The notes beneath the pieces are model-generated. The model saw only the letters and a list, made by a program, of their open reading frames with translations, was not told where the DNA came from and ran no database searches. This document shows, piece by piece, positions 1-45,468 of a stretch of 54,984 nucleotides of DNA; positions within the stretch are counted from its first letter, which is position 1, and each line of letters starts with the position of its first letter. The position numbers and the translations under genes were made by a program. The stretch comes from a virus (taxonomy: Duplodnaviria; Caudoviricetes), in the IMG/VR virus record IMGVR_UViG_3300048016_000081, positions 1-54,984 of that record; one strand, written 5' to 3'.

Positions 1-127
1 GATGTATCGGCGGAAAAAATTGTGATTGAGTTAGTCATGAAAATACTCCAGTTAAGTTGCTTGATTGTGTGCACTCAGAATCAAATACACACAAAGAAGC
101 CGCTTGCTCATAACAAGCGAACTTGAG
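1..127. repeat. Terminal direct repeat (copy 1), probably assembly overlap of a circular contig
   Basis: 1-127 is identical to 54858-54984; 127 is a common maximum assembler k-mer, and a gene reads through the junction. Confidence 0.95.
93..120 (-). terminator. Hairpin with weak U-rich tail at the 3' side of the ncRNA candidate
   Basis: Minus strand CGCTTGTT-ATG-AGCAAGCG then GCTTCTTT. Confidence 0.4.
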
Positions 128-541
128 ACGGATTTTGCTGTTCTTGGTATCCGTGTGGTTGACCTCATCGCCCGTTTTACAGTCGGCGCTACTGACACTA
201 GGCATTACTCCCCTAGTGATTTAACGTGGTGGGACTCTTACCCCTCTACACGTTTCGCAGTGCCGTACAGATACCCATAGTGCTGTATCTTGGCTTTGCC
301 GTGTCACTAGGACGCGGATGCTTACCAGATGGGCATAGATAATCCCCCCATCAAGTCACTGTGTAATGGATGCTAACCCCCCACATAGTGCTGTTCACGA
401 ACGTAGATTTTTAATGAATTACCGCCTGAGCAAACTATGCTTTCCATGCGCTACCTACTCTGAGCCACAAAGGGCTGAATCGTACGGCGCGTTACTCACA
501 CAATGAACTGTTATCAGCGGGTAAAACTGCGATCAGTCTCA
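124..541 (-). ncRNA. Candidate large structured non-coding RNA or structured early leader, family unknown
   Basis: Nested long-range helices 124-129/536-541, 255-261/526-532 and 262-268/482-488, plus about 9 local hairpins; G-U pairs and A-rich loops favour the minus strand; no credible ORF. Confidence 0.6.
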
Positions 542-1078: not shown

Positions 1079-1354
1079 ATGACTACCCTCAAGCTAGAGC
1101 TCACCATTCAAGAAATCGACATGGCCTTCGTTCTGTTTCAAGCTGCCCGTCAGGCGCAGTACACATACGACGAAGTCAACACGCTGATGCGCAAAATCCA
1201 AGAGCAGGGCAAACCCCAGTTGGAAGCATTGGCTGTCAAAGCGGAAACTCCGCCCCCAGCTCCGAAGGTGCGTAAGCCACGTGAACCCAAAGCAGTCCCA
1301 GTGGTAGCAGTGGACCCAGCTCTGCCAGACCTCAGTGACTTGAAGCTCGACTAA
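1079..1354 (+). CDS. Hypothetical protein
   Basis: Tightly packed in operon, TAATG coupling to next gene. Confidence 0.7.
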   Translation: MTTLKLELTIQEIDMAFVLFQAARQAQYTYDEVNTLMRKIQEQGKPQLEALAVKAETPPPAPKVRKPREPKAVPVVAVDPALPDLSDLKLD

Positions 1355-1485
1355 TGAAACGCTACAACTTCTTCCTCCCCGAACAGGTTGTGGCTGCTCT
1401 ACGCGCAGAAGCAGAGCGCACTGGGCTGACCATGTCTGAACTGATTCGACGCATCTTGACCGACGGGTTGAAGAAGTATGAGTAA
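1354..1485 (+). CDS. Ribbon-helix-helix (CopG/Arc-like) DNA-binding protein (43 aa), not in ORF track
   Basis: MKRYNFFLPEQVVAALRAEAERTGLTMSELIRRILTDGLKKYE: beta strand, helix, GxxxSELIR helix. Confidence 0.85.
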   Translation: MKRYNFFLPEQVVAALRAEAERTGLTMSELIRRILTDGLKKYE

Positions 1486-1969
1486 CGACTTAGACCACTT
1501 CGCGGACTTCACCGAGTTCGCGCTCTCACCTCAATCCAGCGAACCTCATGTCACCCTAGACATCCCGCCCCAGTTGGTGTGGGAGTGCGCTGCGGGGCTG
1601 GAGAATCCGACCGACGTAGCAGCTCGCTTTGGTTTCGCTGGTGAGAAGTGGGAGCGCTTACAACAGTGGCCGCCGTTCATACACGCGGTTCAGAACCAAC
1701 GCGCTGAGTTTGAGCGCAATGGCATGACGTTCCGGCTCAAGGCCGGTCTGATGGCTGAAGAGATGATGAGCCAGATGTTCAAGCAGGCCATCGCCAACGA
1801 CACGTCAATCATGCAGAAGCTGAGTGTGTTCAACTCACTCGTGGATGTTGCTGGCTTGAAGCCTGACAAGAAGGCCGTGGACACAAACGTGCAGGCCGCA
1901 CCGAAGTTCAGTATCACGATCAACATTCCGCAGGCACAAGGCCCAGCTCCAATCACAATCGACGCATGA
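1478..1969 (+). CDS. terS: Probable terminase small subunit
   Basis: N-terminal HTH-like segment, helical core, C-terminal FSITINI strand; upstream of TerL. Confidence 0.65.
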   Translation: MSNDLDHFADFTEFALSPQSSEPHVTLDIPPQLVWECAAGLENPTDVAARFGFAGEKWERLQQWPPFIHAVQNQRAEFERNGMTFRLKAGLMAEEMMSQMFKQAIANDTSIMQKLSVFNSLVDVAGLKPDKKAVDTNVQAAPKFSITINIPQAQGPAPITIDA

Positions 1970-2124
1970 ACTACAACGGCAATCTTACTCAGGGGCTGGT
2001 TGACGAGCTACTGGCAGTCATCCATAAATACGACGAGACGCTATTGCTCCCTACTGCACTTGGCTGTCTTGAGTTAGTTAAACAGCAGCTTATCCAAGAC
2101 CACATGGGCGACATAGATGGCTAA
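1966..2124 (+). CDS. Hypothetical protein (52 aa), not in ORF track
   Basis: ATGA coupling to terS; MNYNGNLTQGLVDELLAVIHKYDETLLLPTALGCLELVKQQLIQDHMGDIDG. Confidence 0.7.
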   Translation: MNYNGNLTQGLVDELLAVIHKYDETLLLPTALGCLELVKQQLIQDHMGDIDG

Positions 2125-2752
2125 AATAGGGTATAATACCCCTATGGAAGAAACTCTAAACTCCGGCGTGTACCTAATTCGCAATGTCTACACCAAAGAC
2201 GCGTATGTTGGGTCTGCGCACGACTTCACTAAACGCTGGCGGCTGCATCGAATCAACCTTGACGCTAGGCGGCACCACTCTCGGATACTGCAAAATGCAT
2301 GGAACAAGTATGGCGCTGATGCTTTTGAGTGGGTTGTTCTAGCGCGCTGTCCAAAGAACGCCGTGCTCGCGGCTGAGCAGGTTTGGTTAGACCAGCTTAC
2401 TGCTAAATACAACGTGTGCCGGGTAGCGGGGTCTCGTGCAGGGACTAAAAATACCGATGCTCAGAATGCTAGGATTTCGGAAAAAGCGAAAGCTCGTTGG
2501 GCAGACCCCGCGTTCAAAGCCAAGATTTCCTTAGCGGCAAAACAAAACGCCGTGCGTGGGGCACGTATTCAGCTCCATGGGACGGAGAGAATGATTACTT
2601 TTTTGGGTGAGACCAAGACCTTGTCCGCATGGAGCGTCAGCACAGGTGTGAAGCGAGAGACTATTGCGTATCGACTTAATGCAGGGCATCCTGTTGAAAT
2701 TGCATTGAGCACATCCAAACTACCCAAAGGGCCAAAGAAATGTCCGCAGTAA
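2117..2752 (+). CDS. Free-standing GIY-YIG homing endonuclease (start may be ATG 2144)
   Basis: GVYLIRN...YVGSA...RWRLH...LQNAWNKYG...E...YN catalytic domain followed by NUMOD/HTH-like DNA-binding region. Confidence 0.9.
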   Translation: MAKIGYNTPMEETLNSGVYLIRNVYTKDAYVGSAHDFTKRWRLHRINLDARRHHSRILQNAWNKYGADAFEWVVLARCPKNAVLAAEQVWLDQLTAKYNVCRVAGSRAGTKNTDAQNARISEKAKARWADPAFKAKISLAAKQNAVRGARIQLHGTERMITFLGETKTLSAWSVSTGVKRETIAYRLNAGHPVEIALSTSKLPKGPKKCPQ

Positions 2753-4185
2753 ATTACACCCCCGTACCCTCAGTGGTGCCGTATCTTTTGTCTGACAAGT
2801 TTCAGTCCTTTATCGTTGGTCCTGTAGGTTCCACGAAGACTACAGCTAGCCTTATGAAAATACCCATGGAGGCCAAAAAGATGGCTCCATGTGCTGATGG
2901 AATCCGTCGTAGCCGATGTGCTGTTGTGCGAAACACGCGTCAGATGTTGCTTGACTCAACCATCAAAGACTTCTTAAATCTGTTCCCAGAAGGGGACGCA
3001 GGCGATTACCACCGCACAGAACTTCGGTTTACGTTGAAGTTTGATGATGTTGAGTGTGATATCTTGTTTCGCGGACTTGACGACGCCAATGACGTACGTC
3101 GTTTGCTTTCATTGCAGCTTTCTTTTGCTATGGTGGACGAGGTTCGTGAGATTAATCCAGACGTGTACGATGCGCTGACGGGTCGACTCGGGCGATACCC
3201 AAACGGCATGCTAGTGCCGCACCGCCCTGAGTGGGGGGTGGATGAAAAAGGCAACCCCATTCAAGGGTGCGTAGATGATGACGGTAACCAGATGAAGAAG
3301 GTCTGGGGGGCAACTAACCCCGCTGACGCTGATTCGTTTTGGGAAAAACATTTGTCCGACTACGACGAAGAAAAAGTTCATGTGACAATCCAGCCGTCTG
3401 GGTTGAGCCAAGAAGCAGACTGGGTACAACATCTACCATCCAATTACTATGAAGACTTGATTGTTGGTAAGTCTGAAGACTGGATTGACGTGTATATCCA
3501 CGGCCACTGGGGGCGTTCTCTCTCGGGCCAGCCAGTATTTAAGGCGTTTGACCGAAGCATCCATGTCTCCAAGCAACCACTAAATCACATCAAACTCCAG
3601 ACCCACCCACTCATAATTGGGCACGACTTTGGGCTTACGCCGTCTTGCACGATTAGCCAAGTCGATGCTCAGGGTAGGCTGCTCACTTTTGCAGACCTGA
3701 CGTCAGATGGTATGGGGGAGGTGCGTTTTATTCGGGAAAAGCTAAAACCCTTGCTAGCTAACCGGTTCCCGGGCATGAACGTCATTGTTATCGGTGACCC
3801 TGCTGGCACGCAGCGGGCTCAGACTGATGAGCGCTCGGTATTCGACATTCTCAAACAAGAGGGGTTCCGAGTCATCCCAGCCAAGACAAACAGTATTGTT
3901 TCTCGGGTCAACGCAGTGGATAAATTCCTTACCCGGACGGTGGACGGTAAACCCGGGCATTTGATCGACCCGAGCTGTACAAATTTAATTGCTGCACTTC
4001 GGGGCGGATATAGGTATAAAATCCGCAAGAACGGCGAAACAGATGACACACCTGAAAAAAATTCGCACTCCCACATTGCAGATGCCCATCAGTACGCGTG
4101 TCTGCACGCAGATGGAAACGTCACAGGCGATGTTTGGGCTCGTAAGGCAGTAGCGGTACAGAAATCCAACTATGTATGGACCTGA
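2740..4185 (+). CDS. terL: Terminase large subunit
   Basis: Walker A-like GPVGSTKT, VVRNT, Walker B AMVDE, GATNP coupling motif, RNase H-like GHDFG...GDPAG...SHIADA. Confidence 0.93.
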   Translation: MSAVNYTPVPSVVPYLLSDKFQSFIVGPVGSTKTTASLMKIPMEAKKMAPCADGIRRSRCAVVRNTRQMLLDSTIKDFLNLFPEGDAGDYHRTELRFTLKFDDVECDILFRGLDDANDVRRLLSLQLSFAMVDEVREINPDVYDALTGRLGRYPNGMLVPHRPEWGVDEKGNPIQGCVDDDGNQMKKVWGATNPADADSFWEKHLSDYDEEKVHVTIQPSGLSQEADWVQHLPSNYYEDLIVGKSEDWIDVYIHGHWGRSLSGQPVFKAFDRSIHVSKQPLNHIKLQTHPLIIGHDFGLTPSCTISQVDAQGRLLTFADLTSDGMGEVRFIREKLKPLLANRFPGMNVIVIGDPAGTQRAQTDERSVFDILKQEGFRVIPAKTNSIVSRVNAVDKFLTRTVDGKPGHLIDPSCTNLIAALRGGYRYKIRKNGETDDTPEKNSHSHIADAHQYACLHADGNVTGDVWARKAVAVQKSNYVWT

Positions 4186-22337: not shown

Positions 22338-25300
22338 ATGGCTAATATTTGGGACGAGTACGAACGCGACCTGTTCTCCGAGAAAAAGAAAAAGGACGAC
22401 AAACCTGCTTCTTCCAATATCTGGGATGACATCGAGCAAGAGCATTTCAACCCAAAGCCAAAGGCTGGACTTACCTCTAGCCAAGTTTCTTCCTCCATTG
22501 ACCGTTACCAAGCTGGCCTATACGGCGTAGGCGAAGCTGTCGCTGAAGGCGTCGGAGCTAAAGATTCTGCCGAGTGGCTTAAAGGCCGCCGTGAAGAAAA
22601 CGAATTCTTGGCCGATAAAGCATCTCAACGCGCTCGCGACCTTGGTGCGGTTGACCAATTTAAAGATGTACATAGCCTAAGTGATTTTGGCAGCTACGCA
22701 AAAGGCTTGGCCATCCAATCCCTGCCATACGCTGGTGAAGCCTTGGCTGGAGGTCTTCTTGCTCGTGGCGCTATGTCTGGCACTCGCGCTGCCCTTACGG
22801 CGGCCAAAGAAGCTAAAGACGTTGCCGGCGTCGCCCGTGCTGAACGCGCCTTGAACGCAGGCTCCCAAGCTGGTGCAGTGGCCGCATCCTATCCGTCTGC
22901 TGTGGGCGATGTGCTGGGTAACCAGCGTGAACAATCTGATGGTGAGACTCGTGGTGGTGTCGCTGCTGCACTAGCCGTGCCGTATGCTGCGCTGAACGCG
23001 TTTGGTGTTGAGGGTGCTTTAGCCCGTGGCACTGCCTTCAAGAACACCGTGAACCTCCTTGACCGTGGCACCGGCTTGACTGGTGCTGCTGCTCGTACTG
23101 CTGCTACTGCAACTGGCGTGGCCCTCAAAGAAGGTGCTTCGGAAACTGGCCAAGAGATGCTGAACCAAGTTGGTCGCATGTCGGTTGACTCAAGCGAAGC
23201 CTTCCTAAGTGAAGCAGCCCAAGAGCGATTCAAAGAATCATTCATTGGTGGTGCAGCCCTTGGTGGTCTGGCCGGTGGTATCGGTGGCGGCTGGCGTCGT
23301 AGCTCTGCTGGTGGTAATGACATCTCCCAAGCCATGGGTAGCAAGGACGCTACACAGCCGGACATCACGACAACTCAGTTCACTCCGCCCCCTCCACCCC
23401 CCGCTGCTGATATAACTGGCACCCCGTCTGTTGTTTCTACGCAACAGACCATTCCTTCGGCTCCGGCAGTCGTAGGTGGTACTACGGATATTGCACAGGC
23501 GCAAGCCCAAGCTCAGGCTGCCCAACAACAACAGCAGATGCAGGAACAGCAGCAGGCTGCTCGCGAAGAGTTCACTCAGCGCTTTGGCGGTGTGCGCCCA
23601 GCCTTGGATGAGAATGGCCAGCCTACGCAAAGCGTGGTGTTCCAGAACAAGACATACCACACCCGCGACGAGCTCAATGCTGCCGTGGACAAACTGGTAG
23701 CTAAAGATCAGACTAAGGACGACCATGCTCGTCAAGTACAAGCTGCATTTACCAAGACTTACTCTACTCAAGAGAAGACCCCGAACGTAAACTCAGTTGT
23801 CTCCCAGACCAGCCGGTACACCAATCGCACTGCATCTGTGGAAGAGGCTGCCGCACGAATTAACATCGAGATCGCCACACTGGTGGGCCAAGGTAAAAAG
23901 CTGGATGACACTAAGTTATCTAAGCTGGCCGAGTTTTACGAGAACCTTACTGGTGTGACAGCACCAGCTTACGCAGCCGCTGAACAAGCACAACCAACAG
24001 GAGTTAACAATGGAAAACTGCAACTGCAAAACGATGCCGGGCTTCGAGAAGTACCAGTCACAGGCGGAGCAACAGAAACAAACGATGGACAAGCTGGGGG
24101 TGTACGACCCGCTGTGCTTCAATCCGTCGGAGCAACAAGTGTCGGAGCGGGACCGCTTGACCTCCAAGCTGGACAGCCATCAACAGGCGGAGTACGGACA
24201 AGCACCGGAGATGTATCCAATGCTGCCGGTGGCGATGCCACGCAAGCGCAAGTAAATGGGCAAGCTCAAGCAACCGTTCCAAGTGCCGCCCAAGTCACCG
24301 ACGAACGACTCCCTAATGAAAATCTTGGGTCAGTTCCTCCAGTACAACAAGAGCAGTCAGTTGAAGAACAACGAGCCGAAGAAGTCCCCAACTTAATTCG
24401 CTCCGCGCTTCGCATGATTTACAAGTCAGACCGCAAGGTCGACTTGTTGTTGCTCTTGACCGAAAAAACACAGCGCAGTGACTACGCCGCAATCGCTAAG
24501 GAATACGGAGTAACCGAGCAGTACGTTAAGGAGCTGGCGGCAGAAGCCATTACTGACAAAGGTAAAACTTTCCCCCGTTTCATTGAAGCCAACATTGACA
24601 AGTTCATGGCCGCAGTCAACGTACAAGCGGAGCAATCCGGTATTAGCGTACTAGAAGCTCTCGATGCGTTGCAGACTATCCATGACGCCTACGAGGGCGG
24701 GCTCGCTTCCCAATTAGGCGTGGAAGTGAATGAGGGCGACCTCATTAATGCTGGTATGGAAATCCAGAATCTCAAAGAGCGCACTGACAATGAAGGCAAA
24801 GGTACTGGCAAAGTAGACCGCACCAACGTATCCGACTTGGCCGAAGAAGGCAACAAGATGGAAGCCTTGATGCAACAGTACTTGGACCTGTCCAATGAGC
24901 TGGAAGCTGCCACTGAGGCCAATGACGAGCGTGTTCAAGAGCTGGAAGAGCAAGTCGCAGAGTTAACTACAAAAATCGCCGCCGCCGAGAAGAAAGAAAA
25001 AGCTCGCGTTCGCGCCACGGCTGGAAAACAAGCACCAAAGGAAACTGAAAATGCCGTTCAAGTCGAAAGCACAGATGAGGGAGATGTTCGCGAACCAGCC
25101 GGAGGTAGCGAAACGGTGGGCGAAGGAAACGCCGAACCCCAAAAGCCTGCCAGAAAAACTAAGCAAGCCAAAGTCGAAGACAACGCCGACCAAGCCGCGC
25201 CGGAAATAAGAACTCCGCAAGAGCAGTATGACGCTCTGGCCGCCACAACCAATCTGTTACCTCCGTACGAGGCATTGGATGAACGCGAGCGTGCTCAAAT

Positions 25301-28300
25301 AGAAGACCAAGCCTATCAAGGTAAGTTGACTCTTGCGTCATTGAACACCATGTTCTCGGGCAACGCCAAGTTCGGTAAAGACGTTCGCGCTATCAATCCG
25401 TACACCGTGGCTGAGCTGACCAAAGATATTGAAGATTTTGTTCGTGCATCAATCTCATCGCGTAAGCTGGTGATAGTTAACTCAGTTGAGGACTTGACGA
25501 ACTCTGCTGATAAGGTTGTAAAACAGATTGGTGCCGTGCTTGCCGTTGAAGGCGCGTATGGTGTTGCAGTAAATGGCCGTGCCTTCCTGATTGCAAACCG
25601 TATCGAAAAAGGTATGGGTCGTGCCAAGTTTATGCACGAGGTCGGAGCTCACATAGGGCTAGAGAATCTGCTACCTAAAGCAACATATGACCGCCTTGTC
25701 GCCCAGATTAAAAAGTGGACAAACTCTGAGGCTGACACTGATGAAGTTACCTTGGCTGCCAGAGCTGAGATGCGTGTCCTCAACGCTAACACTCCTGCCG
25801 CTGACTATGACGCAGAACTGCTGGCTTACTTTATTGAAGAAGCTGTCCAAGCCGGCATTGACCCAACCGCTTCTGGCAAAGAGACTGGTGCTCTGCGCGA
25901 GTGGTTCCGTACGTTGTGGGCTGCGTTTAAGGTTGCTGTGCGTAAGCTGGGGTACAACCCTGAGGCCATGACTGCGCAAGACATTGTGGATATGGCTTTT
26001 GGCGCTGCTCGCTTGGAGATGTCAGGTACGTACCACGGCACTGCTGCTAACTTCCGTAACTTCCGTAATGAGTACATTGGCTCTGGCGAAGGGGCTACCG
26101 CTTATGGCTGGGGTACATACCTTGCCGAACGCTATGGGATTGCTAAGGGGTATTTTGAAGCTGACGTGCGTCGTAAGACCAAGGATGCCCCCGTTACGAA
26201 TCCAGCGCAGGCGGTACAGGATTTCTTTGGTTTTGGGAAGCTGGTAAAGCCAGACGGCAGCCTCATGCGCGTTGATACCTCAGTTGCTGATGACGAGCTG
26301 TTTAACTACAACGCCACAGTGGCAGAGCAACCACAACGGGTGAAGGACGCTATTAAGTCCATGCTTGACCCCATCGCAGATGAAGTGTTAGATCGCACCA
26401 ACTCTGACGTGGATGAGCTCACTGGGCGAGACCTCTTTGGTACGGGGGAGAATGACCTCGGCTTGTTGAGCCGCTTAATCATGGACGACGTGCTAGTCGC
26501 CGACGGTGCCAAGTTCAACAAAGCTGTGCAGCAAGGCGAATTCCACAAGGCAGCGTCACTGTTGCTCGAGGAAGCTGGTATCGCAGGCATTAAGCATCTG
26601 GATGCTCGTAGCCGTGGCACCGCCACTAGCGTCATTCAGTTCCGTGGGAAAGCATACAACCGAGATGAGCTGCGGGACGCTGCCCGAGCTGCTTATGCAG
26701 CCAAAGATGAGCAGCAGACCTTTGAGATGGGCATGCTACGAAGCCTGTTACAGAACGGGATTGACCACGTCAGAGCTATGCACCAGTCCAAGCAAGCGTA
26801 TTACGAGCGCTTGTTCTACAAGACTGACAAAGAATCCGCTGAGAAGTTCAAAGTTCCTTTCGACGAAGAGCAAGCTCGCGCTGACGCAAAGCGAAAAACT
26901 AAAGACTTGTTTGAGACCAAAGCGCTCGACTGGCTGGACAAGCACGAGGCTGAGATTTCCATGGCGGAGAATCCGCGCACATACAACCGTATTTTGTTTA
27001 GTGATAAGAACATCTTCCGTGTTGGCACCCAAGTGGCCGCAGATCGCCAACGCATGCGCTTTGGTAAAAATATGTCTACCCGCCTGAACGAAGGACTAGA
27101 AAACAATCTCCCCGCCTCGGTGGTAAAGCCTGCTAAGTCTGTAGTGTCTACAATGGGTGCTGCCGTGAAGAACGGCTTGTTGGCTGTGGGTATCACTGAA
27201 GATGTAGTCAACGCCGCTAGCAAGTACATGCGCTCCGCTCAGGATTACCTGACTGCTCAGTACGCTCGCCAGAAGACTCGCCTCGAGTTTGAACAGCGCA
27301 TTGAGGCTATCCTCGACTCGTTCGACAAGCTGCCCAAGAACCTCCAAGGTGAAGACGCTGGCAGCGTGAACCGCTACATCTTGGACTCCACGATGAGCAA
27401 GAAGTGGGGCTACTACCCCGGTGAAAAGCGCATTGGCACAAAGTTGTTTGAGGTTGACCCAGACTTAGAGAAGCGCTTCCTTGCGTTCCCACCTGCTGCC
27501 CAGCAACTAATTCGTGACGTGTTTGAGCACGGCTACACCGCCCTCAAGGCTAAGAGCGACGCTATTGATGTAGCAGTTGAGCGTGAGTTTGCTGAACGCA
27601 CCAAGGCCGCCGCAGGCGATGCTGACCTATTAGATGAAGTGGCTACTGCCAAGAAGCTGATGCGTACTCAGTTGAGCAGCATCCAGAACGTCGACTTCAC
27701 TACCCCCTACGCCTACCTCGGTCGTTACGGCGACTACGTCGTGGCAGCCAAGTCTGCTGAGTTTAAGTACTGGGAAGGCGTTGCTGCTGAGAAGGGTGAG
27801 AACAAAGAACGTGCCGCTGCATGGTTGGCTGAGAATACTTCCAACCCAGACCACTACGTTGTACAGTTTGCTGAGACCCAAGGTGAGGCTGACTCGATTG
27901 CTGCTGATCTGATTGCCACTGGCAAGTTCGACATGGACGGCACTGAGGCTGGCCCCAAAGAAGACATCGGTTCTTACATTGGTTCTGATGTCCACCTCGC
28001 TGTAGCGCGTCTGCGCAACTTGATCTCTCGCCAAGAAGGCGAAAGCGGTGAGGGCAACTCTGACCTCAACCGTATGATTTCTGACCTGTACCTGACGACT
28101 GCTGCTGAAAACAGTGCTCGTAAGTCTGAGATCATGCGTAAGTACGTGGCCGGTGCAAACGGAAACATGATGCGTAACTTGGCCACGTCTGGCCGAGCCG
28201 ATGCCCACTTCCTGAGCACAATGAAACACAACGACGATGTGGTGGATGCCCTCGAGCGCATGCGCAACGAAGCCAAGGGCAACGTGCGTAACGCAATGCC

Positions 28301-29867
28301 CATCTACAACGAGTTGTTCAAACGCCAGACAGACAGCCTTGAGTACAAGTCGCCATCGACTTTGAGCCTCGCGTTGACTCGGGCCACATCCGTGTGGTTC
28401 TTGGCTACTAGCCCTGCGTTCTACCTGCAACAGATGCTGCAAACTACTGTGCTGTCGCTGCCTTATATGTCTGGTCGCCTCGGTTACTTCCGTTCTGCTC
28501 GCGCCATCAAGGCTGCATACAGTGACGTGGCTACGCTGGTCAAGGGCATGGGTATCAACGAGCACATTGATTTCTCTAAGGCTCCAGCTGATGTGCGCCC
28601 TATGCTCCAGACTCTGGTTGGCATGGGCAAGATTGACATTGGTATTGACGCCGACGCCAAGGCTCGTGCTGGCGAGAACAATGTGCTGAATACAGTGATG
28701 CGCAAACTCCAAGGTGTGAACAACCGCATTGAAGCTGTGAACCGTGCGACTGCCGCGATTGCTGCGTACCGTGGATACATCCAACGCTACGGCGCTGGTA
28801 ATACTGACGCTGCCACTAAGTTCGCTGCTGATGTCGTGTCCAACACACACGGCTCATACGATGGGTTTAACACGCCGCGAGTTCTGAATAGCGACATTGG
28901 CCGTTTGGTTGGTCAGTTCAAGCGCTTCCAGATCATCCAGCTCTCTATGCTGGGCAAGCTTATCAACACATCCTTCAAGGGCGCAAGTCCCGAGGAACGA
29001 GTTGTGGCTCGCCGCGCATTGGCTTTCATCACTGGCCACATGGCTGTCGTGGGCGGCGCACTGGGTGTTCCTTTTGTACAACAAGTTGCTAGCTTAATGC
29101 TTGCTGCCTTCGGCGACGATGACGAACCTAAGAACCTTGAGTACACACTGCGCCAAGCCATTGGCGACGAGACTATGGCTAACCTGCTCCTGAACGGTGT
29201 GCCCGCTGCGGCTGGCGTGAACCTCAGTGGTAAGCTGGGTATGGGTAACGTGGCTTCTATCCTGCCGTTTACTGACGTGGACTTGTCCACTCGCTCTGGC
29301 TACGAGAAGACGATGGTCGGATTGATGGGCCCATTCCTTGGCGGTCTGGCTCCTAAGTTTGCCGATGGCGCTGGTATGGTTGCCAAGGGTGAGTACTACA
29401 AGGGTCTGGAGCTGCTGATGCCTAACGGTATTGGTAACGCAATGAAGGGTGCTCGTATCGCCAACGAAGGTGTGACGATGCGCAACGGCGATGTAGTCCT
29501 GAAGCCAGAAGAAATTAGCATGGTAGACGCTGCGTTCCAAGCTGTTGGTTTGCCAACGACTACCCTCACTGGCCGTCAGTACACCCAGAAGATCGCAATG
29601 GACTTTGACAAGTTCTACAGCACCAAGGCTGCCGACATCAAGGGCGCGTACGTCAATGCCAACCGCGATGGCGACACGGAAAGTATGGCGGAGGCCCGTA
29701 AAGATTGGGAAGACCTGCAAGCATCACGCCGCAAGAATGGCTATAAAATACAGCCAATGTCGGAGCTGTTTAAGGCTACCGTTGCTGCCCGTAGGCGTGA
29801 AGCTGGTGTGGTAGATGGCGTTGAGACTACTAAGTCCAACAAAGAGTTTGTGAAGAACATCATCTAA
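22338..29867 (+). CDS. Giant polyvalent ejection protein (2509 aa) with HTH-like, zincin-like and ADP-ribosyltransferase-like regions
   Basis: EGASETGQE membrane-type N-terminal region; YAAIAKEYGVTEQYV; MHEVGAHIG...ELLAY; YHGT..NF..F...IGSGEGATAYGWGTY; long helical C-terminal region. Confidence 0.85.
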   Translation: MANIWDEYERDLFSEKKKKDDKPASSNIWDDIEQEHFNPKPKAGLTSSQVSSSIDRYQAGLYGVGEAVAEGVGAKDSAEWLKGRREENEFLADKASQRARDLGAVDQFKDVHSLSDFGSYAKGLAIQSLPYAGEALAGGLLARGAMSGTRAALTAAKEAKDVAGVARAERALNAGSQAGAVAASYPSAVGDVLGNQREQSDGETRGGVAAALAVPYAALNAFGVEGALARGTAFKNTVNLLDRGTGLTGAAARTAATATGVALKEGASETGQEMLNQVGRMSVDSSEAFLSEAAQERFKESFIGGAALGGLAGGIGGGWRRSSAGGNDISQAMGSKDATQPDITTTQFTPPPPPPAADITGTPSVVSTQQTIPSAPAVVGGTTDIAQAQAQAQAAQQQQQMQEQQQAAREEFTQRFGGVRPALDENGQPTQSVVFQNKTYHTRDELNAAVDKLVAKDQTKDDHARQVQAAFTKTYSTQEKTPNVNSVVSQTSRYTNRTASVEEAAARINIEIATLVGQGKKLDDTKLSKLAEFYENLTGVTAPAYAAAEQAQPTGVNNGKLQLQNDAGLREVPVTGGATETNDGQAGGVRPAVLQSVGATSVGAGPLDLQAGQPSTGGVRTSTGDVSNAAGGDATQAQVNGQAQATVPSAAQVTDERLPNENLGSVPPVQQEQSVEEQRAEEVPNLIRSALRMIYKSDRKVDLLLLLTEKTQRSDYAAIAKEYGVTEQYVKELAAEAITDKGKTFPRFIEANIDKFMAAVNVQAEQSGISVLEALDALQTIHDAYEGGLASQLGVEVNEGDLINAGMEIQNLKERTDNEGKGTGKVDRTNVSDLAEEGNKMEALMQQYLDLSNELEAATEANDERVQELEEQVAELTTKIAAAEKKEKARVRATAGKQAPKETENAVQVESTDEGDVREPAGGSETVGEGNAEPQKPARKTKQAKVEDNADQAAPEIRTPQEQYDALAATTNLLPPYEALDERERAQIEDQAYQGKLTLASLNTMFSGNAKFGKDVRAINPYTVAELTKDIEDFVRASISSRKLVIVNSVEDLTNSADKVVKQIGAVLAVEGAYGVAVNGRAFLIANRIEKGMGRAKFMHEVGAHIGLENLLPKATYDRLVAQIKKWTNSEADTDEVTLAARAEMRVLNANTPAADYDAELLAYFIEEAVQAGIDPTASGKETGALREWFRTLWAAFKVAVRKLGYNPEAMTAQDIVDMAFGAARLEMSGTYHGTAANFRNFRNEYIGSGEGATAYGWGTYLAERYGIAKGYFEADVRRKTKDAPVTNPAQAVQDFFGFGKLVKPDGSLMRVDTSVADDELFNYNATVAEQPQRVKDAIKSMLDPIADEVLDRTNSDVDELTGRDLFGTGENDLGLLSRLIMDDVLVADGAKFNKAVQQGEFHKAASLLLEEAGIAGIKHLDARSRGTATSVIQFRGKAYNRDELRDAARAAYAAKDEQQTFEMGMLRSLLQNGIDHVRAMHQSKQAYYERLFYKTDKESAEKFKVPFDEEQARADAKRKTKDLFETKALDWLDKHEAEISMAENPRTYNRILFSDKNIFRVGTQVAADRQRMRFGKNMSTRLNEGLENNLPASVVKPAKSVVSTMGAAVKNGLLAVGITEDVVNAASKYMRSAQDYLTAQYARQKTRLEFEQRIEAILDSFDKLPKNLQGEDAGSVNRYILDSTMSKKWGYYPGEKRIGTKLFEVDPDLEKRFLAFPPAAQQLIRDVFEHGYTALKAKSDAIDVAVEREFAERTKAAAGDADLLDEVATAKKLMRTQLSSIQNVDFTTPYAYLGRYGDYVVAAKSAEFKYWEGVAAEKGENKERAAAWLAENTSNPDHYVVQFAETQGEADSIAADLIATGKFDMDGTEAGPKEDIGSYIGSDVHLAVARLRNLISRQEGESGEGNSDLNRMISDLYLTTAAENSARKSEIMRKYVAGANGNMMRNLATSGRADAHFLSTMKHNDDVVDALERMRNEAKGNVRNAMPIYNELFKRQTDSLEYKSPSTLSLALTRATSVWFLATSPAFYLQQMLQTTVLSLPYMSGRLGYFRSARAIKAAYSDVATLVKGMGINEHIDFSKAPADVRPMLQTLVGMGKIDIGIDADAKARAGENNVLNTVMRKLQGVNNRIEAVNRATAAIAAYRGYIQRYGAGNTDAATKFAADVVSNTHGSYDGFNTPRVLNSDIGRLVGQFKRFQIIQLSMLGKLINTSFKGASPEERVVARRALAFITGHMAVVGGALGVPFVQQVASLMLAAFGDDDEPKNLEYTLRQAIGDETMANLLLNGVPAAAGVNLSGKLGMGNVASILPFTDVDLSTRSGYEKTMVGLMGPFLGGLAPKFADGAGMVAKGEYYKGLELLMPNGIGNAMKGARIANEGVTMRNGDVVLKPEEISMVDAAFQAVGLPTTTLTGRQYTQKIAMDFDKFYSTKAADIKGAYVNANRDGDTESMAEARKDWEDLQASRRKNGYKIQPMSELFKATVAARRREAGVVDGVETTKSNKEFVKNII
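24010..24255 (+). CDS. Nested +1-frame gene A inside the giant gene (81 aa)
   Basis: AGGAG-ttaaca-ATG; host frame turns low-complexity with rare CGA/GGA/ACA codons here. Confidence 0.55.
   Translation: MENCNCKTMPGFEKYQSQAEQQKQTMDKLGVYDPLCFNPSEQQVSERDRLTSKLDSHQQAEYGQAPEMYPMLPVAMPRKRK
24256..24396 (+). CDS. Nested +1-frame gene B (46 aa), abuts gene A as TAA-ATG
   Basis: MGKLKQPFQVPPKSPTNDSLMKILGQFLQYNKSSQLKNNEPKKSPT. Confidence 0.5.
   Translation: MGKLKQPFQVPPKSPTNDSLMKILGQFLQYNKSSQLKNNEPKKSPT
25051..25209 (+). CDS. Nested +1-frame gene C (52 aa), small basic MPFKSKAQ-type phage protein
   Basis: AAGGA RBS; MPFKSKAQMREMFANQPEVAKRWAKETPNPKSLPEKLSKPKSKTTPTKPRRK. Confidence 0.75.
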   Translation: MPFKSKAQMREMFANQPEVAKRWAKETPNPKSLPEKLSKPKSKTTPTKPRRK

Positions 29868-34257: not shown

Positions 34258-35187
34258 TTAGTCGTCGAAGTTCAGATCGTCGAGGTTCAGGTCTGGAATG
34301 TCAACCTCAACAGGTGCAGCTTTCACTTCAGGCTTAGGCTCAGCTTTCGGCTTGGCCACAGCTTTAGGTTTCTCAGCCACGGGTGCTGGTGTAGCAGCCT
34401 TGACTTCCACGGTTGGCAGCTCTTCTTCATGGGCAGCCTCGGCAGCAGCCGCAGCAGCAATACCGTCAGAACCCAAGATGGACTGCACAACTTCGGACAC
34501 TGCAACTTCTTGCACTTGGGCATAGCCAGCATCGCTCAACAAACCTGTAGGCTTGAAGGTCAGCTTAGGAGTGGGCGACTCCATGTCAAAGCCAATGCGG
34601 GTAACCACCATGTTGTATCCAACGCCGCGCTTAGCGAGCATCTTGCCATATTCGCCCAAGGACTTGATGGATGCTGGGGGCACACGCAACAGGTATGGGT
34701 CGTTGATCTGGTCAGCCGTAGCGATAGCCATACGGACGCTGTCTTGGCAAGCCTTGCCTTTGCCGCCGTTGTCGCCGATCTTGCTGCCCCATTGGTTGTG
34801 TGGGCAGATTGCGCATGACTTGGACTGAGGTTCAGCCACGGAGCCATCAGGCTTATCGCCAGTGTTGGAGAAGCAGTCAGGCTTAGTGGCCTCGCTACCT
34901 TCTTGGTAGCCCTTCATGTAGAACACTTTGGACGTGCCCTTGTTGGCCTTGACCAACACGACTTCGATTGACGGTACTGCGATCTTCTCGCCGTCCACAT
35001 CTTTGGTCAGTACGGTGCGCTCGCCGTCACGAACGACGGTGAAGTTCTTGCCCTTGATGGACATAACAGGAAAGCCACCAACGCCAGCGTGAGCCGTCAA
35101 GTCATCGTTGACTGCGGAGCGGTTAGCTGTTTTCAAATAGGCTGGCAGGTTGCCAGAGGCGGTGTCGAAGGGGATGATGTTTGACAT
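34258..35187 (-). CDS. Probable single-stranded DNA-binding protein
   Basis: PDCFS.G..P, CAICPHNQWGS, GKACQ, LRVPPAS; acidic tail DLNLDDLNFDD; highly biased codons. Confidence 0.7.
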   Translation of the reverse strand: MSNIIPFDTASGNLPAYLKTANRSAVNDDLTAHAGVGGFPVMSIKGKNFTVVRDGERTVLTKDVDGEKIAVPSIEVVLVKANKGTSKVFYMKGYQEGSEATKPDCFSNTGDKPDGSVAEPQSKSCAICPHNQWGSKIGDNGGKGKACQDSVRMAIATADQINDPYLLRVPPASIKSLGEYGKMLAKRGVGYNMVVTRIGFDMESPTPKLTFKPTGLLSDAGYAQVQEVAVSEVVQSILGSDGIAAAAAAEAAHEEELPTVEVKAATPAPVAEKPKAVAKPKAEPKPEVKAAPVEVDIPDLNLDDLNFDD

Positions 35188-35213
35188 CTTAGTTTTCTCC
35201 AGAGGGTTAAGGG

Positions 35214-35594
35214 TTAGGTACGACGGATGTTGACCACGCGCTCCGAGCGCCAGTTGATGCCGGGCGGGAGGTCTTGGTGTTCATCTTTGTATTGTTGTAT
35301 GGCTGTCTTAGAAGCGCGAACTTCCATCAGATGCCAGTCTTCACGGGACTTAACGAAGGACATGAAAGCGTCCTTGTCAGCCACAGAAGCAGTGCTGCGT
35401 TCAGTAGTATAGGCTGTACCAAACTCAGTCTTGACTGAGTCCATGCCTGTAGTTTCAAACGTCTTAAGTAGGGCGGATTCAATCTGGTCAAGGACTGCAT
35501 CCAATTTCTCTACTTTGTTTTCGTACTCGGCTTTGAACTCAGCTTTTTTGTCGCGTAGCTCAATGTACTTGGCTACCAGTTCTGATATTTTCAT
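35214..35594 (-). CDS. Replication-module protein (coiled coil plus SVKTEFGTAY)
   Basis: Position between SSB and helicase; LPPGIN motif. Confidence 0.75.
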   Translation of the reverse strand: MKISELVAKYIELRDKKAEFKAEYENKVEKLDAVLDQIESALLKTFETTGMDSVKTEFGTAYTTERSTASVADKDAFMSFVKSREDWHLMEVRASKTAIQQYKDEHQDLPPGINWRSERVVNIRRT

Positions 35595-35655
35595 TGTTTG
35601 TTCCAGTGAGGGGGACGGAGGTTACCATCAAATAAGTGCGTGTGTATAGTGGTTT

Positions 35656-37221
35656 CTACTGGTCGCTCTCGATTCCTTTCATAATGTCTAACAAAGAGCC
35701 TTGCAGCTTTTCTTTTGCTTGTAATCGCTTATAAATACGTCGTTCAATATCACTGCCAGCTATATGGGCGATGACTGTTGTACGGGTTTGCCCGGGGCGA
35801 CGAACGCGAGCACACGCTTGGACGTAAATATCATTTGAGTGGATGGGCGCATACCAGATGATGGTTGTCGCCGCAGTTAGGGTTAGCCCATGAGACATGG
35901 TTGCAGGGTTGGCCACGATGACACGGATACGATCAGTTTTTTGGAATGCCCCAAAGATTTCATCACGGTCTGTCTTTGACGTACCCCCATGCACAGACGC
36001 TGTCTCCCAATCAGAGCTTAGCTCTTGAGCTACATGCTCAAGCACACCAGTCAACGGGACGAACACAAGCACCTTGCCCTCGGACTCTTCAATGAGCTCT
36101 TTCAGCACGTCTATGCGTGGTTTGTTCGGGATGTGGATGTACTCACCCTTGGCTCCGTATGCCACACCGCAAGCGATCTGCACCAGCTTGTTAGCCTTCA
36201 CAGCTTCGTTCACAGCGAGCACTTGGCCGCCTTCGTATTCCATCTTCAACTTGTCCAGCATGCCTTTGTACGCTGCCTTCTGTTCAACAGTCATCTCCAC
36301 GTCGCGGGTAACGAACGTCTGCTCGGGCAAGTCAATACAGTCATCCAATGCGAAGCGCACTGACGGTTGCATGATGGCCTTCACTGTGTCCACTGCGTCC
36401 TTGCGGGCAACCCACTTGAACTGAGTCAACTGCTTCATCACCATGTCGCGGAACTTGCCGAAGTATTTAGGTACTACGGGGCTCGTTGGTACAACGATAC
36501 GGCACTGCGCCCATGCGTCTGTTGGTTCATGCGGTGTTGGTGCACCAGTCAATCCCCACACACGTCGCGCTGACTGCTTGTTGCAGATGGCGTTCAATGT
36601 CTTCCAGCGGTCAGTACCAGCATTACGGAACATGGCGATCTCGTCCACGATGATGAGGTCAATGTCATCACGCTTTTGCAAGTCTTCCAAGATGGTCTTG
36701 ATACCGTCGGTGTTGATGATGTACAGATCAGCGTCTTGTGCCAACAATTTCTTGCGTCGCTCACGAGTTCCATACACCACTGTCGCATCCAGATGCGGGA
36801 ACGTCTTGAAGACTTCATCAGCCCAAGTGCGCTCCATCGTAGACAACGGACAGACAATCAAAGCCTTCTTCACTAGCTTGCACTCACGCATGTAGTCGAA
36901 CGCCCACAGCGATGTAACTGTCTTACCGAGGCCCATACTATTTAAGCAGAAGGCCCTGTCGTGCATAGCTAGGAAGTTGGCAGTCTCTACCTGAGCAGCG
37001 AATGGTTTGAACCGGCCCGGCCATTGGTAGTAGTACTCCATAGGGTCTGGTGGATTGAACCCCAGATTACGAAGCACCTTGACTTCCTCTGGTCGGTGCG
37101 GTACAGCCACTAGCGTGTCCCCCTCATGAGAAACCAAACGTGCCGTTGGGATGACAGTGGTAACTCTTGAAGGGTTGCGCAGTTTAAAGATGAGGGCTTT
37201 TTTGTCTTTTCTAATTAGCAT
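35656..37221 (-). CDS. SNF2-family superfamily 2 helicase
   Basis: MGLGKT, IIVDE, LTGAP, KVLVF, HGLTLTAA, QACARVRRPGQ. Confidence 0.92.
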   Translation of the reverse strand: MLIRKDKKALIFKLRNPSRVTTVIPTARLVSHEGDTLVAVPHRPEEVKVLRNLGFNPPDPMEYYYQWPGRFKPFAAQVETANFLAMHDRAFCLNSMGLGKTVTSLWAFDYMRECKLVKKALIVCPLSTMERTWADEVFKTFPHLDATVVYGTRERRKKLLAQDADLYIINTDGIKTILEDLQKRDDIDLIIVDEIAMFRNAGTDRWKTLNAICNKQSARRVWGLTGAPTPHEPTDAWAQCRIVVPTSPVVPKYFGKFRDMVMKQLTQFKWVARKDAVDTVKAIMQPSVRFALDDCIDLPEQTFVTRDVEMTVEQKAAYKGMLDKLKMEYEGGQVLAVNEAVKANKLVQIACGVAYGAKGEYIHIPNKPRIDVLKELIEESEGKVLVFVPLTGVLEHVAQELSSDWETASVHGGTSKTDRDEIFGAFQKTDRIRVIVANPATMSHGLTLTAATTIIWYAPIHSNDIYVQACARVRRPGQTRTTVIAHIAGSDIERRIYKRLQAKEKLQGSLLDIMKGIESDQ

Positions 37222-37454
37222 GAGAGTCTCATTGCAGCGAGCACAGCCAGAATGGTTTCATCTGTCGGATACGGGAAGTCCATCTCGTGGATGGTGGAAT
37301 CACCTTTGACTCGCCACTTGATGGTCTTTGAGTCCCAATCCCTGTCGTCTGACATGATTAGCGCGGATACGTTCTCGGGTACTGGGTATCCAAAGAATGT
37401 GTATCGCCCAGTGTCAACATGCCTGATTGCGTCACTTGCCGTACTGCGAGCCAT
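37215..37454 (-). CDS. Hypothetical protein (start MARSTAS)
   Basis: GGAG RBS before ATG 37454. Confidence 0.65.
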   Translation of the reverse strand: MARSTASDAIRHVDTGRYTFFGYPVPENVSALIMSDDRDWDSKTIKWRVKGDSTIHEMDFPYPTDETILAVLAAMRLSC

Positions 37455-37695
37455 TGGTTTTTCTCCATCCTCGGTTGGTAGTTTGGTCAACCACACGGAG
37501 ATTGCCTTTGCTATTGCCGCCACCGCCGTCCAGCATCTTCTTGTGATCTACATCGCGCCCGTCGCCCTTCTTGACTTTGCCTTCTTTGGCTAGTGCAGCT
37601 CGGGCTGCGTTGCGCTTCTCACGGTTGTCCACTTGCTCTGGTCTGGCGTTGTATGCCTTGTCGTATGCGGCTTTCTTAGCCCCGCCCTTGTTCAT
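37432..37695 (-). CDS. Small HNH-like endonuclease
   Basis: KRNAAR...GDGRDVDHKK.L..GG.N...NLRV.....NR. Confidence 0.8.
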   Translation of the reverse strand: MNKGGAKKAAYDKAYNARPEQVDNREKRNAARAALAKEGKVKKGDGRDVDHKKMLDGGGGNSKGNLRVVDQTTNRGWRKTNGSQYGK

Positions 37696-37984
37696 AGGAG
37701 TCCTCCAAATAGTCACGTAGTTGTTCGACATCATCGACTACCAAGGCTCTACCCCAGTGGTCTTTGATCTCTGCGATGACACGGTCTTGATTAGCCGTGG
37801 TGTCACCCCTCTTGCCGGGGGCCTTTGTCTCGATTGCCAGAAACTTTCCTTCCCAGCAGCAGATGAAATCAGGGATGCCCACTACGCCAAACCCATTCTG
37901 CATGGGCATGAAGTACCAGATGTCTCTCTTGCGCAGTTCTTTTTTAACTGCGTCTTTGACTTTACCTTCGGGTGTCTGTGCCAT
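37676..37984 (-). CDS. VRR-NUC domain nuclease (probable junction resolvase)
   Basis: TPEGKVK, GIPDFI, FLAIETKAPG, Q. Confidence 0.9.
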   Translation of the reverse strand: MAQTPEGKVKDAVKKELRKRDIWYFMPMQNGFGVVGIPDFICCWEGKFLAIETKAPGKRGDTTANQDRVIAEIKDHWGRALVVDDVEQLRDYLEDSYEQGRG

Positions 37985-38082
37985 TATTTACTCCAAAACT
38001 TAACCAGTGACAGCCACATTACTACACCAGCGACGGCAACAATGAGGCCGAGACTTAGTCCGACGATTTGCATCCAGCTCAT
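37984..38082 (-). CDS. Small membrane peptide (32 aa), not in ORF track
   Basis: ATGA and TAATG couplings; MSWMQIVGLSLGLIVAVAGVVMWLSLVKFWSK. Confidence 0.6.
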   Translation of the reverse strand: MSWMQIVGLSLGLIVAVAGVVMWLSLVKFWSK

Positions 38083-38732
38083 TTCTTCTCCTTGTAAAAG
38101 TCACACGATTTAACTGGGCACCAGCCACGGCACAGGCCACTAGGACGGCACGGCCATGACTCACGCTCATATGCAGACTCTAGCTTACGCACCCTTGGTA
38201 GGAAGCCGTTCCAGATACCAGCGACTTGGTCACGATGATAGGTGGCCTTGTCAATCTTCTTGTCACGCAGCCACACGAAGCCAGTCGTCACATAGTTCAC
38301 TTCAGGGTAAGTTGCAAACGTGTAGCCAACATAGAGTTCGAGCTGCTCAGTGAGCTTGCGCTTACCAGTCTTGTAGTCAAACACACCAGCCTTGTCACCA
38401 TGGATAACCAGCAAGTCAGCGATACCGCGTGACCACGCATTGCCCCACTCAGCAGGTTGGAAGTTTTTGTCCACTGCCATCTGTTCTTCACAGAGCTTCT
38501 GGCCGGGGAGCGCAGCGAACTTAGCAGCGATGCTTTCCCATTGCTCCATGCCTTCGGGCAGAGGTGTGCCATCACGGACACGGTACTCCATAGCAGTGTG
38601 GACTTTCTCGCCCCACATCGTTGCCTCAGTCGGCGGCTCCTTGATGTCCTTCAGTACACGAACATGGTAGAACTGCCTTGGGCACGTCTCAAATTTGTCA
38701 AGCTGGGAGTATGTCCAAGCGGGTATAGCCAT
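38079..38732 (-). CDS. PD-(D/E)XK exonuclease, Cas4/RecB-like with four Cys
   Basis: WTYSQL..FETCP, G..VH, RGIADL, FDYKTG, QLELY, LCRGWCPVKSC. Confidence 0.9.
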   Translation of the reverse strand: MAIPAWTYSQLDKFETCPRQFYHVRVLKDIKEPPTEATMWGEKVHTAMEYRVRDGTPLPEGMEQWESIAAKFAALPGQKLCEEQMAVDKNFQPAEWGNAWSRGIADLLVIHGDKAGVFDYKTGKRKLTEQLELYVGYTFATYPEVNYVTTGFVWLRDKKIDKATYHRDQVAGIWNGFLPRVRKLESAYERESWPCRPSGLCRGWCPVKSCDFYKEKK

Positions 38733-38764
38733 AGGGGTTCCTCTCAAAGACCAAAGTCTTTAAG

Positions 38765-40657: not shown

Positions 40658-40866
40658 GTCTTCTTCTCGTGGTGATCTTTTAGGTAGTTGAAGGCTGCTT
40701 GCCAGCCCACCCATCGGCAGCGCACATGAGCATTGGCGTACGTGTTGTCGTAAGGAGTAAGCGGCTGAGAATGGTTCTTTGCGTGCCAAATCTCAAAGGC
40801 TTCCCGCATGGTCTTACTGTCCTTCTTCCTATATGGCACAGTGATGCCAATTTCTTTCCTAGTCAT
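40654..40866 (-). CDS. Hypothetical protein
   Basis: REAFEIW...Y....V..RW.GWQAA pattern; ATGA coupling to polA. Confidence 0.65.
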   Translation of the reverse strand: MTRKEIGITVPYRKKDSKTMREAFEIWHAKNHSQPLTPYDNTYANAHVRCRWVGWQAAFNYLKDHHEKKT

Positions 40867-41065
40867 TTGGCATTGCTCGTTGGATAGTGATGCGCACTCT
40901 CAGTGGCTCACCTTTGATCTTGAAGCTGTCGATGTCAGACTGTGCTTCGCTCTTGTTTGCATACAGTGAGTAGCCCACTGTGCTCCATGCTGCTTTGTGA
41001 AAGGCGCTGTCGTGGATGCCAATAGCCCACATGGTGACTGTGGTGCGGTAAGGTTGCCTGCTCAT
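40859..41065 (-). CDS. Hypothetical protein
   Basis: Coupled to both neighbours. Confidence 0.65.
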   Translation of the reverse strand: MSRQPYRTTVTMWAIGIHDSAFHKAAWSTVGYSLYANKSEAQSDIDSFKIKGEPLRVRITIQRAMPND

Positions 41066-41247
41066 AAGGGGGCCGCTTCGAGTTGCTTGAGTTTATTTAC
41101 GGTCATAGTTCGGATTGCGTTTGGCTCTTCCCGAGGCGATCTGTTCGCGAGCTTCAGCAAAGAAGTCAAGTCCACTGCTGGAAACGGCCACTGGCCTTGG
41201 TTTTGGTCGGGGGCTGCGGTACGGCTTTTTCTCTTTTGGTTTTTCAT
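41062..41247 (-). CDS. Hypothetical protein with WPFP motif
   Basis: GGAGG RBS; ATGA couplings. Confidence 0.6.
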   Translation of the reverse strand: MKNQKRKSRTAAPDQNQGQWPFPAVDLTSLLKLANRSPREEPNAIRTMTVNKLKQLEAAPL

Positions 41248-41299
41248 TTAGTTCCTCCCAGTTCGGCCAAGGTGCGCCGGGCGCTAACACCGTCTTCAT
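41093..41299 (-). CDS. Possible overlapping gene (68 aa, MKTVLAPGAPWP)
   Basis: Protein-like sequence in a second frame; weak RBS. Confidence 0.4.
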   Translation of the reverse strand: MKTVLAPGAPWPNWEELNEKPKEKKPYRSPRPKPRPVAVSSSGLDFFAEAREQIASGRAKRNPNYDRK

Positions 41300-42206: not shown

Positions 42207-42207
42207 A

Positions 42208-42792: not shown

Positions 42793-42794
42793 AG

Positions 42795-44470: not shown

Positions 44471-44544
44471 GGTTGTCTTTCAGTAAGTGATTTGATGATA
44501 CAGGAAACGTGTGTATGTTCTATAGTTCGCTATAGTTTATTTTT

Positions 44545-45459: not shown

Positions 45460-45468
45460 GTTTTCTCC

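Follow-up and report, generated by a model that had tools for sequence, protein, structure and literature searches.

The divergent control region

The window analysed here is the whole of the viral record IMGVR_UViG_3300048016_000081 (Duplodnaviria; Caudoviricetes), 54,984 bp in length. Its two ends are identical over an exact 127-bp terminal direct repeat (positions 1-127 and 54858-54984), which is probably the assembly sign of a circular or permuted genome. The collection classes the repeat as direct terminal repeats, but a length of 127 bp points to an overlap of the assembly. A number of related contigs of complete length (L003, L013, L022 and L043) likewise break in or near the same intergenic region.

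The genes fall into two arms. The plus strand carries the structural genes, running from 931, where its first gene starts, to ~30,000, and encoding a terminase relative, a portal or adaptor, the major capsid protein, internal virion proteins and a DarB-like polyvalent protein. The minus strand carries the replication genes from ~54,900 down to 30,900, including DNA polymerase, helicase and primase/helicase. Since the replication genes form the minus arm and the structural genes the plus arm, the ~890 nt between them (39-930) constitute a divergent control region, and from its gene content the minus arm is presumably the early one. The phage belongs to a clade without a close cultured relative. 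The terminase-like protein is 41% identical to its nearest relative in the phage collection, and the DNA of positions 1-1100 has no blastn match among 50,697 phage records.

Several genes close to the control region, or further along the structural arm, deserve mention in their own right. A 43-aa ribbon-helix-helix (CopG-like) protein is encoded at 1354-1485 (plus strand), just before a gene for a conserved 163-aa protein, possibly the small terminase, at 1478-1969 (plus strand). Relatives of the 43-aa protein occur in 68 of the 70 related loci, with no hit in L050 or L069, and it is a candidate binder of the repeated motifs of the control region. Between the 163-aa gene and the terminase-like gene (2740-4185) lies a GIY-YIG endonuclease gene (2117-2752, plus strand; Pfam E 5e-9) that overlaps the start of the terminase-like gene by 13 bases, and looks like a homing endonuclease insertion. 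The structural arm also encodes a protein of 2509 aa (22338-29867, plus strand) that matches DarB-like antirestriction/polyvalent-protein families (PHROG E 2e-45), together with a weak ADP-ribosyltransferase hit below the Pfam cut-off. Hairpin promoters of the N4 type served by a giant virion RNA polymerase were considered, and this reading was dropped because the giant protein matches the DarB-like families and is not a polymerase.

A modular array of hairpins

An initial annotation of this DNA had described 124-541 as a single structured RNA of about 420 nt, drawn from twelve helices. What the sequences contain, in our reading, is an array of short, modular hairpins, of which a core of five (H1-H5) occupies ~100-254, some 155 nt in length. 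The features are set out below; for the hairpins the strand is that on which we read them, and the other features apart from the gene start are given without a strand.

36-49, minus strand: start of the first minus-arm gene (144 aa), with ATG at 38-36 and a GGAG Shine-Dalgarno sequence at 49-46; the gene continues at 54895 on the circular map.
57-95: conserved spacer between H1 and the first minus-strand gene, with TGTGTG/CACACA-type repeats or palindromes.
100-120, minus strand: H1 (stem 101-106/114-119), a GC-rich hairpin with a U-rich tail on the minus strand.
128-154, minus strand: H2, a lineage-specific stem of 5-6 bp with a loop of 14-15 nt, whose core CTGTTCTTGG (plus-strand reading) is nearly invariant.
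169-188, minus strand: H3, a stem of 4-6 bp with a loop of 8-14 nt and conserved flanks.
196-218, minus strand: H4, a lineage-specific stem of 5-8 bp, with the loop TCTTTC in most relatives and CATTACTCC in the window.
223-254, minus strand: H5, an outer helix 223-228/249-254 around an inner hairpin 231-233/241-243 with the loop ACTCTTA.
255-268: sequence block conserved in the window, L233, L072 and L053, comprising the 5' strands of two long-range helices of the initial annotation.
269-390: lineage-specific hairpins 269-274/285-290, 299-303/313-317, 328-333/347-352 and 357-364/383-390.
407-417: motif ATTTTTAATGA, of which 10 of 11 positions are invariant in 8/8 aligned intergenic regions, with variable flanks.
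482-541: 3' strands of the long-range helices, a sequence common to L015, L004, L223 and L233; the pairing is unsupported.

Read along the minus strand the order is H5, H4, H3, H2, H1 with its U-rich tail, then ~50 nt of repeats or palindromes, GGAG and the start codon. The 144-aa protein that follows is conserved in L004, L005, L007, L014 and L015 (54-93% identity). The spacer at 57-95 is a candidate operator and/or early promoter; promoter-like hexamers are present there in several relatives, at noise level.

H1 resembles an intrinsic terminator of the minus strand, since a GC-rich hairpin is followed there by a U-rich tail, and it appears as terminator-like on that strand in the list produced by the terminator scan. 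Its stem varies among lineages with the pairing kept, and is GC-rich in all relatives. The tail (at least four T in 8 nt) is found on the minus strand in 13 of 24 relatives and on the plus strand in none of the 24, and 13 is a lower bound because the automatic finder missed H1 in about five loci (L190, L210, L063, L225 and L217), taking a neighbouring palindrome instead. In the L044 group the tail is poor, with two T in 8 nt. Over most of the early arm (35000-54984) the terminators on both strands number 25 against 19.3 +/- 4.6 in shuffles, and thus show no excess.

The loops have a character of their own. On the minus strand those of H2, H4 and H5 share an A-rich, AAGA-type motif, and the loop of H2 reads as four A-purine-any triplets. 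We take such triplets to be the kind of site bound by the distal face of Hfq, which provides a lead. A short complementarity of the H2 loop to the first plus-strand gene was also considered, and rejected when inspection by eye found that it is not kept in the relatives. Inner hairpins of the H5 type occur with other stems in L072, L053, L224, L225 and L229.

Does the region encode protein instead? It had been called free of open reading frames, which is not strictly so, as reading frames of up to 71-75 aa overlap it. Yet loop lengths differ by 2 nt between relatives, which argues against coding.

Conservation and covariation

How well is the array preserved in related phages? Through the neighbouring 163-aa protein we gathered 70 related viral loci. 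Blocks conserved by blastn in these lie at 35-196, 407-541 (two loci only), ~528-752 and 753-931, and positions 197-406 have no blastn homologue in the 70. A covariance model, R1, was constructed for H2-H4, and extra copies were collected using more specific patterns in viral and metagenome contigs, giving 32 matching places in 34 sources, equivalent to 27 distinct rows. A first pattern scan of viral contigs had been too loose; among its first 100 loci there was one R1 match (L157, on the same contig as L005), and the other 16 loci gave none. In the loci searched, the R1 element has so far been found in contigs of uncultured freshwater phages, with one marine copy. Two rows, L207 (cut by the end of its contig) and L226 (19.8 bits), were left out of the strand z-scores and of the counts of stems, right-hand folds and H1 tails, and L222, where the context is too short, was also left out of the H1-tail count.

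The base pairs of the core are kept by compensatory changes across the homologues, as is the mark of a structured RNA. The pair-count alignments were fitted to the structure of the model, so that their counts lean towards it; in that of R1, 90.3% of cells pair, compared with 29-44% when the partners are slid by one to three columns. Changes on both sides are seen in 16/16 pairs (99 cells), and the observed values were reached in 0/500 shuffles. The first 17 R1 sequences alone give the same picture. The stems were also read directly from 25 sequences, and nearly all their pairs are Watson-Crick. H2 has 16 different 5' arms, with 136 Watson-Crick pairs and a single wobble. For H3 the stem variants number 8, and in L072, L053 and L227 the whole stem is exchanged; 99% of its cells pair. 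H4 has 16 variants, with 94% of cells paired and double changes in 6/6 pairs. In H1 and H5 too the stems change with the pairing kept. In an ordinary MAFFT alignment register shifts hid H2 from RNAalifold, and the model-based alignment was used in its place.

A structured element that is conserved and covaries thus stands where the early (replication) arm begins, much as had been proposed. The covariation is strong for the three local hairpins that we call H2, H3 and H4 (128-133/149-154, 169-172/185-188 and 196-202/212-218), and is thinner, mixed or uninformative for the rest of the nine local hairpins of the initial annotation. The outer helix of H5 (223-228/249-254) and the hairpin 328-333/347-352 each have two compensatory double changes, in the single relative L233. 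The hairpin 269-274/285-290 is invariant in L233, and a hairpin with another stem stands at the same place in L072 and L053. In L233 the hairpin 357-364/383-390 has one compensated pair and two broken ones, while 394-398/414-418 and 463-466/473-476 are uninformative.

The element has no counterpart in Rfam. A cmscan search against Rfam 15, whose families include ROOL, GOLLD, tmRNA, RNase P and introns, at the gathering score on the window and with E up to 10 on positions 1-1000, gave nothing over the element and a single match elsewhere, to Atu_At1 at 772-877. At the gathering score, 18 related loci once again gave nothing over the element and only Atu_At1, in seven of them. The claim of novelty with respect to Rfam therefore stands.

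Extent of the element

Beyond the core the relatives become few. L233, a metagenome contig, is homologous to the window over 3-489 (78%), and is the only metagenome contig homologous across the region. In it the U.G pair of the extra hairpin 299-303/313-317 of the window has become U-A. Most relatives have unrelated sequence in place of the middle of the region. L015 retains the long-range helices' 3' strands without H2, H3 or the 5' partners, and a run contig has 101-202 replaced as in L015, H2 and H3 being absent. After the block 255-268, L072 and L053 have hairpins at places matching those of the window but with different stems, two of them compensated between both loci. The hairpins at 269-390 thus rest on two sequence pairs only, window/L233 and L072/L053. 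This part of the window also contains an internal repeat, 303-326 with 355-378 and 276-286 with 384-394. A pattern constructed on 255-268 was abandoned, returning four loci, of which two were already known and two were chance hits in coding sequence. Over the 25 relatives no fold signal is seen in the 175 nt that follow the R1 match rightwards from 227, a stretch that takes in H5 (mean z +0.09 on the plus strand and +0.39 on the minus strand). We regard ~100-254 as the secure element, and find hairpins up to ~390 plausible on thin support; for the closed 420-nt architecture there is no support.

That architecture, a multi-domain fold on the scale of ROOL or GOLLD RNA tied by helices 124-129/536-541, 255-261/526-532 and 262-268/482-488, is very unlikely to exist. 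All twelve helices from which it was drawn are indeed complementary, ten of them perfectly Watson-Crick; 357-364/383-390 has one G.U pair on the plus strand, and 394-398/414-418 one plus-strand mismatch that is a wobble on the minus strand. The long-range helices are among those present in the window, the closing helix is used by the RNAfold minimum-free-energy structure of the plus strand, and L233 conserves both of the blocks 255-268 and 482-488 well. Yet as a folding unit 124-541 is no better in energy than dinucleotide shuffles on either strand (-122.9 kcal/mol, z -1.49 and 7/100 shuffles as good on the plus; -124.5 kcal/mol, z -0.34 and 36/100 as good on the minus), and no long-range pair shows a compensatory change. 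Of the six pairs of the closing helix L233 loses three, turns two into G.T wobbles and keeps one as Watson-Crick, so that the helix is broken there; its 5' strand is missing in L015. Helix 255-261/526-532 is weakened in L233 (four Watson-Crick pairs, one mismatch and two wobbles, that is, one pair lost and two wobbles gained), and 262-268/482-488 is invariant there and has no 5' partner aligning in L015. With H2 and H3 absent in L015 and the run contig, the middle replaced in most relatives and its sequence without a homologue in the 70 loci, a single closed molecule is hard to maintain. At the opposite extreme, the hairpins might be functionless products of chance in a fast-evolving spacer, in keeping with the non-significant fold z of the whole region and the family-wide z near zero of its right-hand part. 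This is the least probable reading of all. For the core at 100-254 it is contradicted by the compensatory changes and by the contrast between true and slid pairing. Moreover the loops are conserved across contigs whose 163-aa proteins are only 58-93% identical, and perfect hairpins are in excess even in the single sequence. Counting perfect stems of at least 6 bp with loops of 3-20 nt against 500 dinucleotide shuffles, 124-541 has five against 1.22 +/- 1.05 (five being reached in 2/500), and 96-400 has six against 0.87 (six being reached in 0/500).

Other elements of the gap

The remainder of the intergenic region is not empty. A full-length match to Atu_At1 (RF02496, 'Rhizobiales sRNA') lies at 772-877 on the plus strand, scoring 88.4 bits against a gathering score of 60. 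It stands directly upstream of the first plus-arm gene, and a metatranscriptome contig covers 807-1078. A search of the full-text literature for the family name found no paper. It is puzzling that an sRNA family of Rhizobiales plasmids should stand in front of the packaging operon in freshwater phages.

Three direct repeats with a unit of ~24 nt containing CGGTAGG (540-563, 584-607 and 597-620) run into a G-rich block at 617-631, with four G-tracts that might fold into a G-quadruplex. Its counterpart in L190 and L210 is rich in C, as though it had been inverted. The repeats and the block (540-631) could be an origin or a packaging site. A ATACACAC-type motif, conserved in relatives, occurs four times in the same (plus) orientation, at 84-93, 672-684, 701-712 and 896-905. 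Copies thus precede H1, the Atu_At1-like element and, at a distance of 26 nt, the start codon of the first plus-arm gene. The motif may serve as a binding site for a regulator or as a promoter element of an unusual kind.

RNA or DNA, and the question of strand

Is the array an RNA, and if so of which strand? We put the chances of its being an RNA of the minus strand at about even. The proposal of a stable minus-strand structure with A-rich loops holds for the core. Against dinucleotide shuffles the mean z of H1-H5 is -2.29 on the minus strand and -1.13 on the plus strand, with the minus lower in 23 of 25 sequences, and the raw minimum free energy of the core is lower on the minus strand in 16/16 sequences. 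The U-rich tail of H1, confined to the minus strand, points the same way. Positions 96-400 of the window fold better on the plus strand (z -2.19, with 3/100 shuffles as good, versus z -0.53 on the minus). Wobble pairs proved uninformative as an indicator of strand, the 25 sequences having three of each kind in H2-H4 (three G.T and three A.C) beside 393 Watson-Crick pairs. A consensus promoter scan of 1-1100 gave no promoter-like site, and a relaxed sigma-70 scan of the minus strand gave hits at noise level and at inconsistent positions. The single RNA run with any of 1-1400 (X23) has a contig that corresponds to 807-1078, outside 124-541, and is silent either way.

The near absence of wobbles is odd for an RNA of one strand. 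It fits a structure formed at the DNA level, or pairing that matters on two strands, and suits a reading in which the hairpins form in single-stranded DNA, for example as origin priming or initiation signals, or in which both strands are transcribed as a sense/antisense pair. This is the weightiest alternative, though on balance unlikely. In its favour the stems turn over fast (16 variants in 25 sequences) and still remain perfect inverted repeats. The same gap has iteron-like direct repeats (540-620), a G-rich block and a conserved AT-rich motif (8/8 aligned regions), the phage encodes its own primase/helicase and polymerase, and the signals of strand conflict between the core and the extended part. 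Against it, the conserved loops of 6-15 nt and the fixed orientation beside the early gene are unlike double-stranded binding sites, the scans revealed no antisense promoter, and a single transcribed strand is indicated both by the asymmetry of z in the core and by the U-rich tail that H1 has on one side only. That strand might of course be the plus. An RNA transcribed rightwards, starting close to the ATACACAC-type motif at 84-93 on the left flank of H1, would present pyrimidine-rich (TCTT-type) loops. It would agree with the better plus-strand fold of 96-400, with G.U pairs on the plus strand in the extra hairpins 299-303/313-317 and 357-364/383-390, and with a repeated plus-oriented motif standing before each plus-strand element. 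We consider it improbable, and distinctly more so than a structure of DNA or of both strands, as the core favours the minus strand across 25 relatives while the extended part favours neither. H1 would then lie at the 5' end with no evident role, no sigma-70-like promoter is seen on the plus strand, and A.C oppositions on the plus strand, which are G.U on the minus, occur in H1 of L004/L007 and L038, H4 of L223 and H3 of L217.

A possible role in early transcription

Best among the explanations, and possible though short of an even chance, is that the array is a terminated, structured RNA of the early strand that governs or accompanies early transcription through control at a leader or terminator. 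It is from the sequences that we infer an RNA nature, a minus-strand origin and a terminator function for H1, and the effect on the early genes is a prediction of the same kind. Transcription of the minus strand would start at a putative promoter to the right of H5, pass through H5, H4, H3 and H2, and stop, wholly or in part, at H1, whose distance to the Shine-Dalgarno sequence of the first early gene is ~50-60 nt. H1 might then gate transcription into the early operon, or insulate the operon from it. The conserved block of repeats or palindromes between H1 and the gene has the look of an operator and/or promoter, and the A-rich, AAGA-type loops of H2, H4 and H5 might be docking sites for RNA polymerase or for an RNA-binding protein. 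The outcome could be a leader of the attenuation or antitermination type, the latter being a possibility that the initial annotation had raised, or a separate small RNA lying head-to-tail with the early promoter.

A bolder version of the minus-strand RNA can be envisaged. The array might belong to a new, modular class of phage RNA that is produced first when a cell is infected and whose modules come and go between lineages. The AAGA loops displayed by each short hairpin, with the U-rich 3' end that follows H1, would then bind up or attract a protein of the host (RNA polymerase, or a chaperone similar to Hfq or ProQ) and in this way take over early expression. We regard this as speculative, and as a little less probable even than a plus-strand transcript.

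Comparison with known systems

Judged by its absence from Rfam, the modular ~155-nt hairpin element is apparently undescribed. Phages are rich in candidate RNA motifs without an assigned function, and this is a modest find and not a surprise. If it is RNA, early transcription in this clade of uncultured freshwater phages (one copy is marine) has at its switch point a conserved non-coding element not described before. Its construction is unusual, combining separable hairpins and conserved loops with quick-turnover stems that stay Watson-Crick, and this offers a clear test of selection at the level of RNA versus that of DNA.

The array can be set beside several known RNAs. With ROOL and GOLLD it shares an origin in phage or environmental sequence and a non-coding character, but it differs from them in having no Rfam match, a core of only ~155 nt, and no supported long-range helices or multistem junctions. 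ColE1 RNA I and RNA II are consecutive stem-loops under antisense control, in which the loops determine specificity. Here too there are consecutive stem-loops, and pairing between two strands would explain both the Watson-Crick purity and the lineage-specific stems; in contrast to the ColE1 RNAs, however, the loops are conserved, and the scans gave no promoters. The CsrB and RsmZ sponge RNAs are series of hairpins with a repeated GGA motif in the loops and a terminator at the end. The array resembles them as a series of short hairpins with a purine-rich loop motif, a terminator-like end, and loops more conserved than stems. Yet GGA is found only in some H4 loops (minus-strand reading, by eye), the shared motif is AAGA-like, and the element does not qualify as a sponge of this type.

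The 6S RNA of phage lambda is a short terminated leader, extending from pR' to tR', that is read through under the action of Q. Read-through dependent on Q is mentioned in PMC9378689. The predicted likeness is that of a short non-coding transcript ending at an intrinsic terminator directly upstream of a large operon, with the terminator as the point of control. The possible promoter or operator between H1 and the gene is a difference, and with it the array would be a unit of its own and not a leader.

A bipartite antitermination system of RNA plus protein is reported for conjugative elements (PMC8191782). The put RNAs of phage HK022 (putL and putR) are described in PMC9378689 as cis-acting antiterminators, stem-loops that head the early operons, after an early promoter and before terminators, and require no dedicated phage protein. 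Each folds into two stem-loops within ~70 nt, and its target is the zinc-binding domain in the beta-prime subunit of the polymerase (PMC9378689). As compared by the description of put only, the array has five or more hairpins spread over ~155 nt and can lose modules (L015 has neither H2 nor H3), and because of this difference in size and construction it is not a member of the put family. Yet here, as in HK022, a terminator-like hairpin comes after conserved stem-loops where the early arm begins, and by this analogy put would be the closest functional counterpart of the array.
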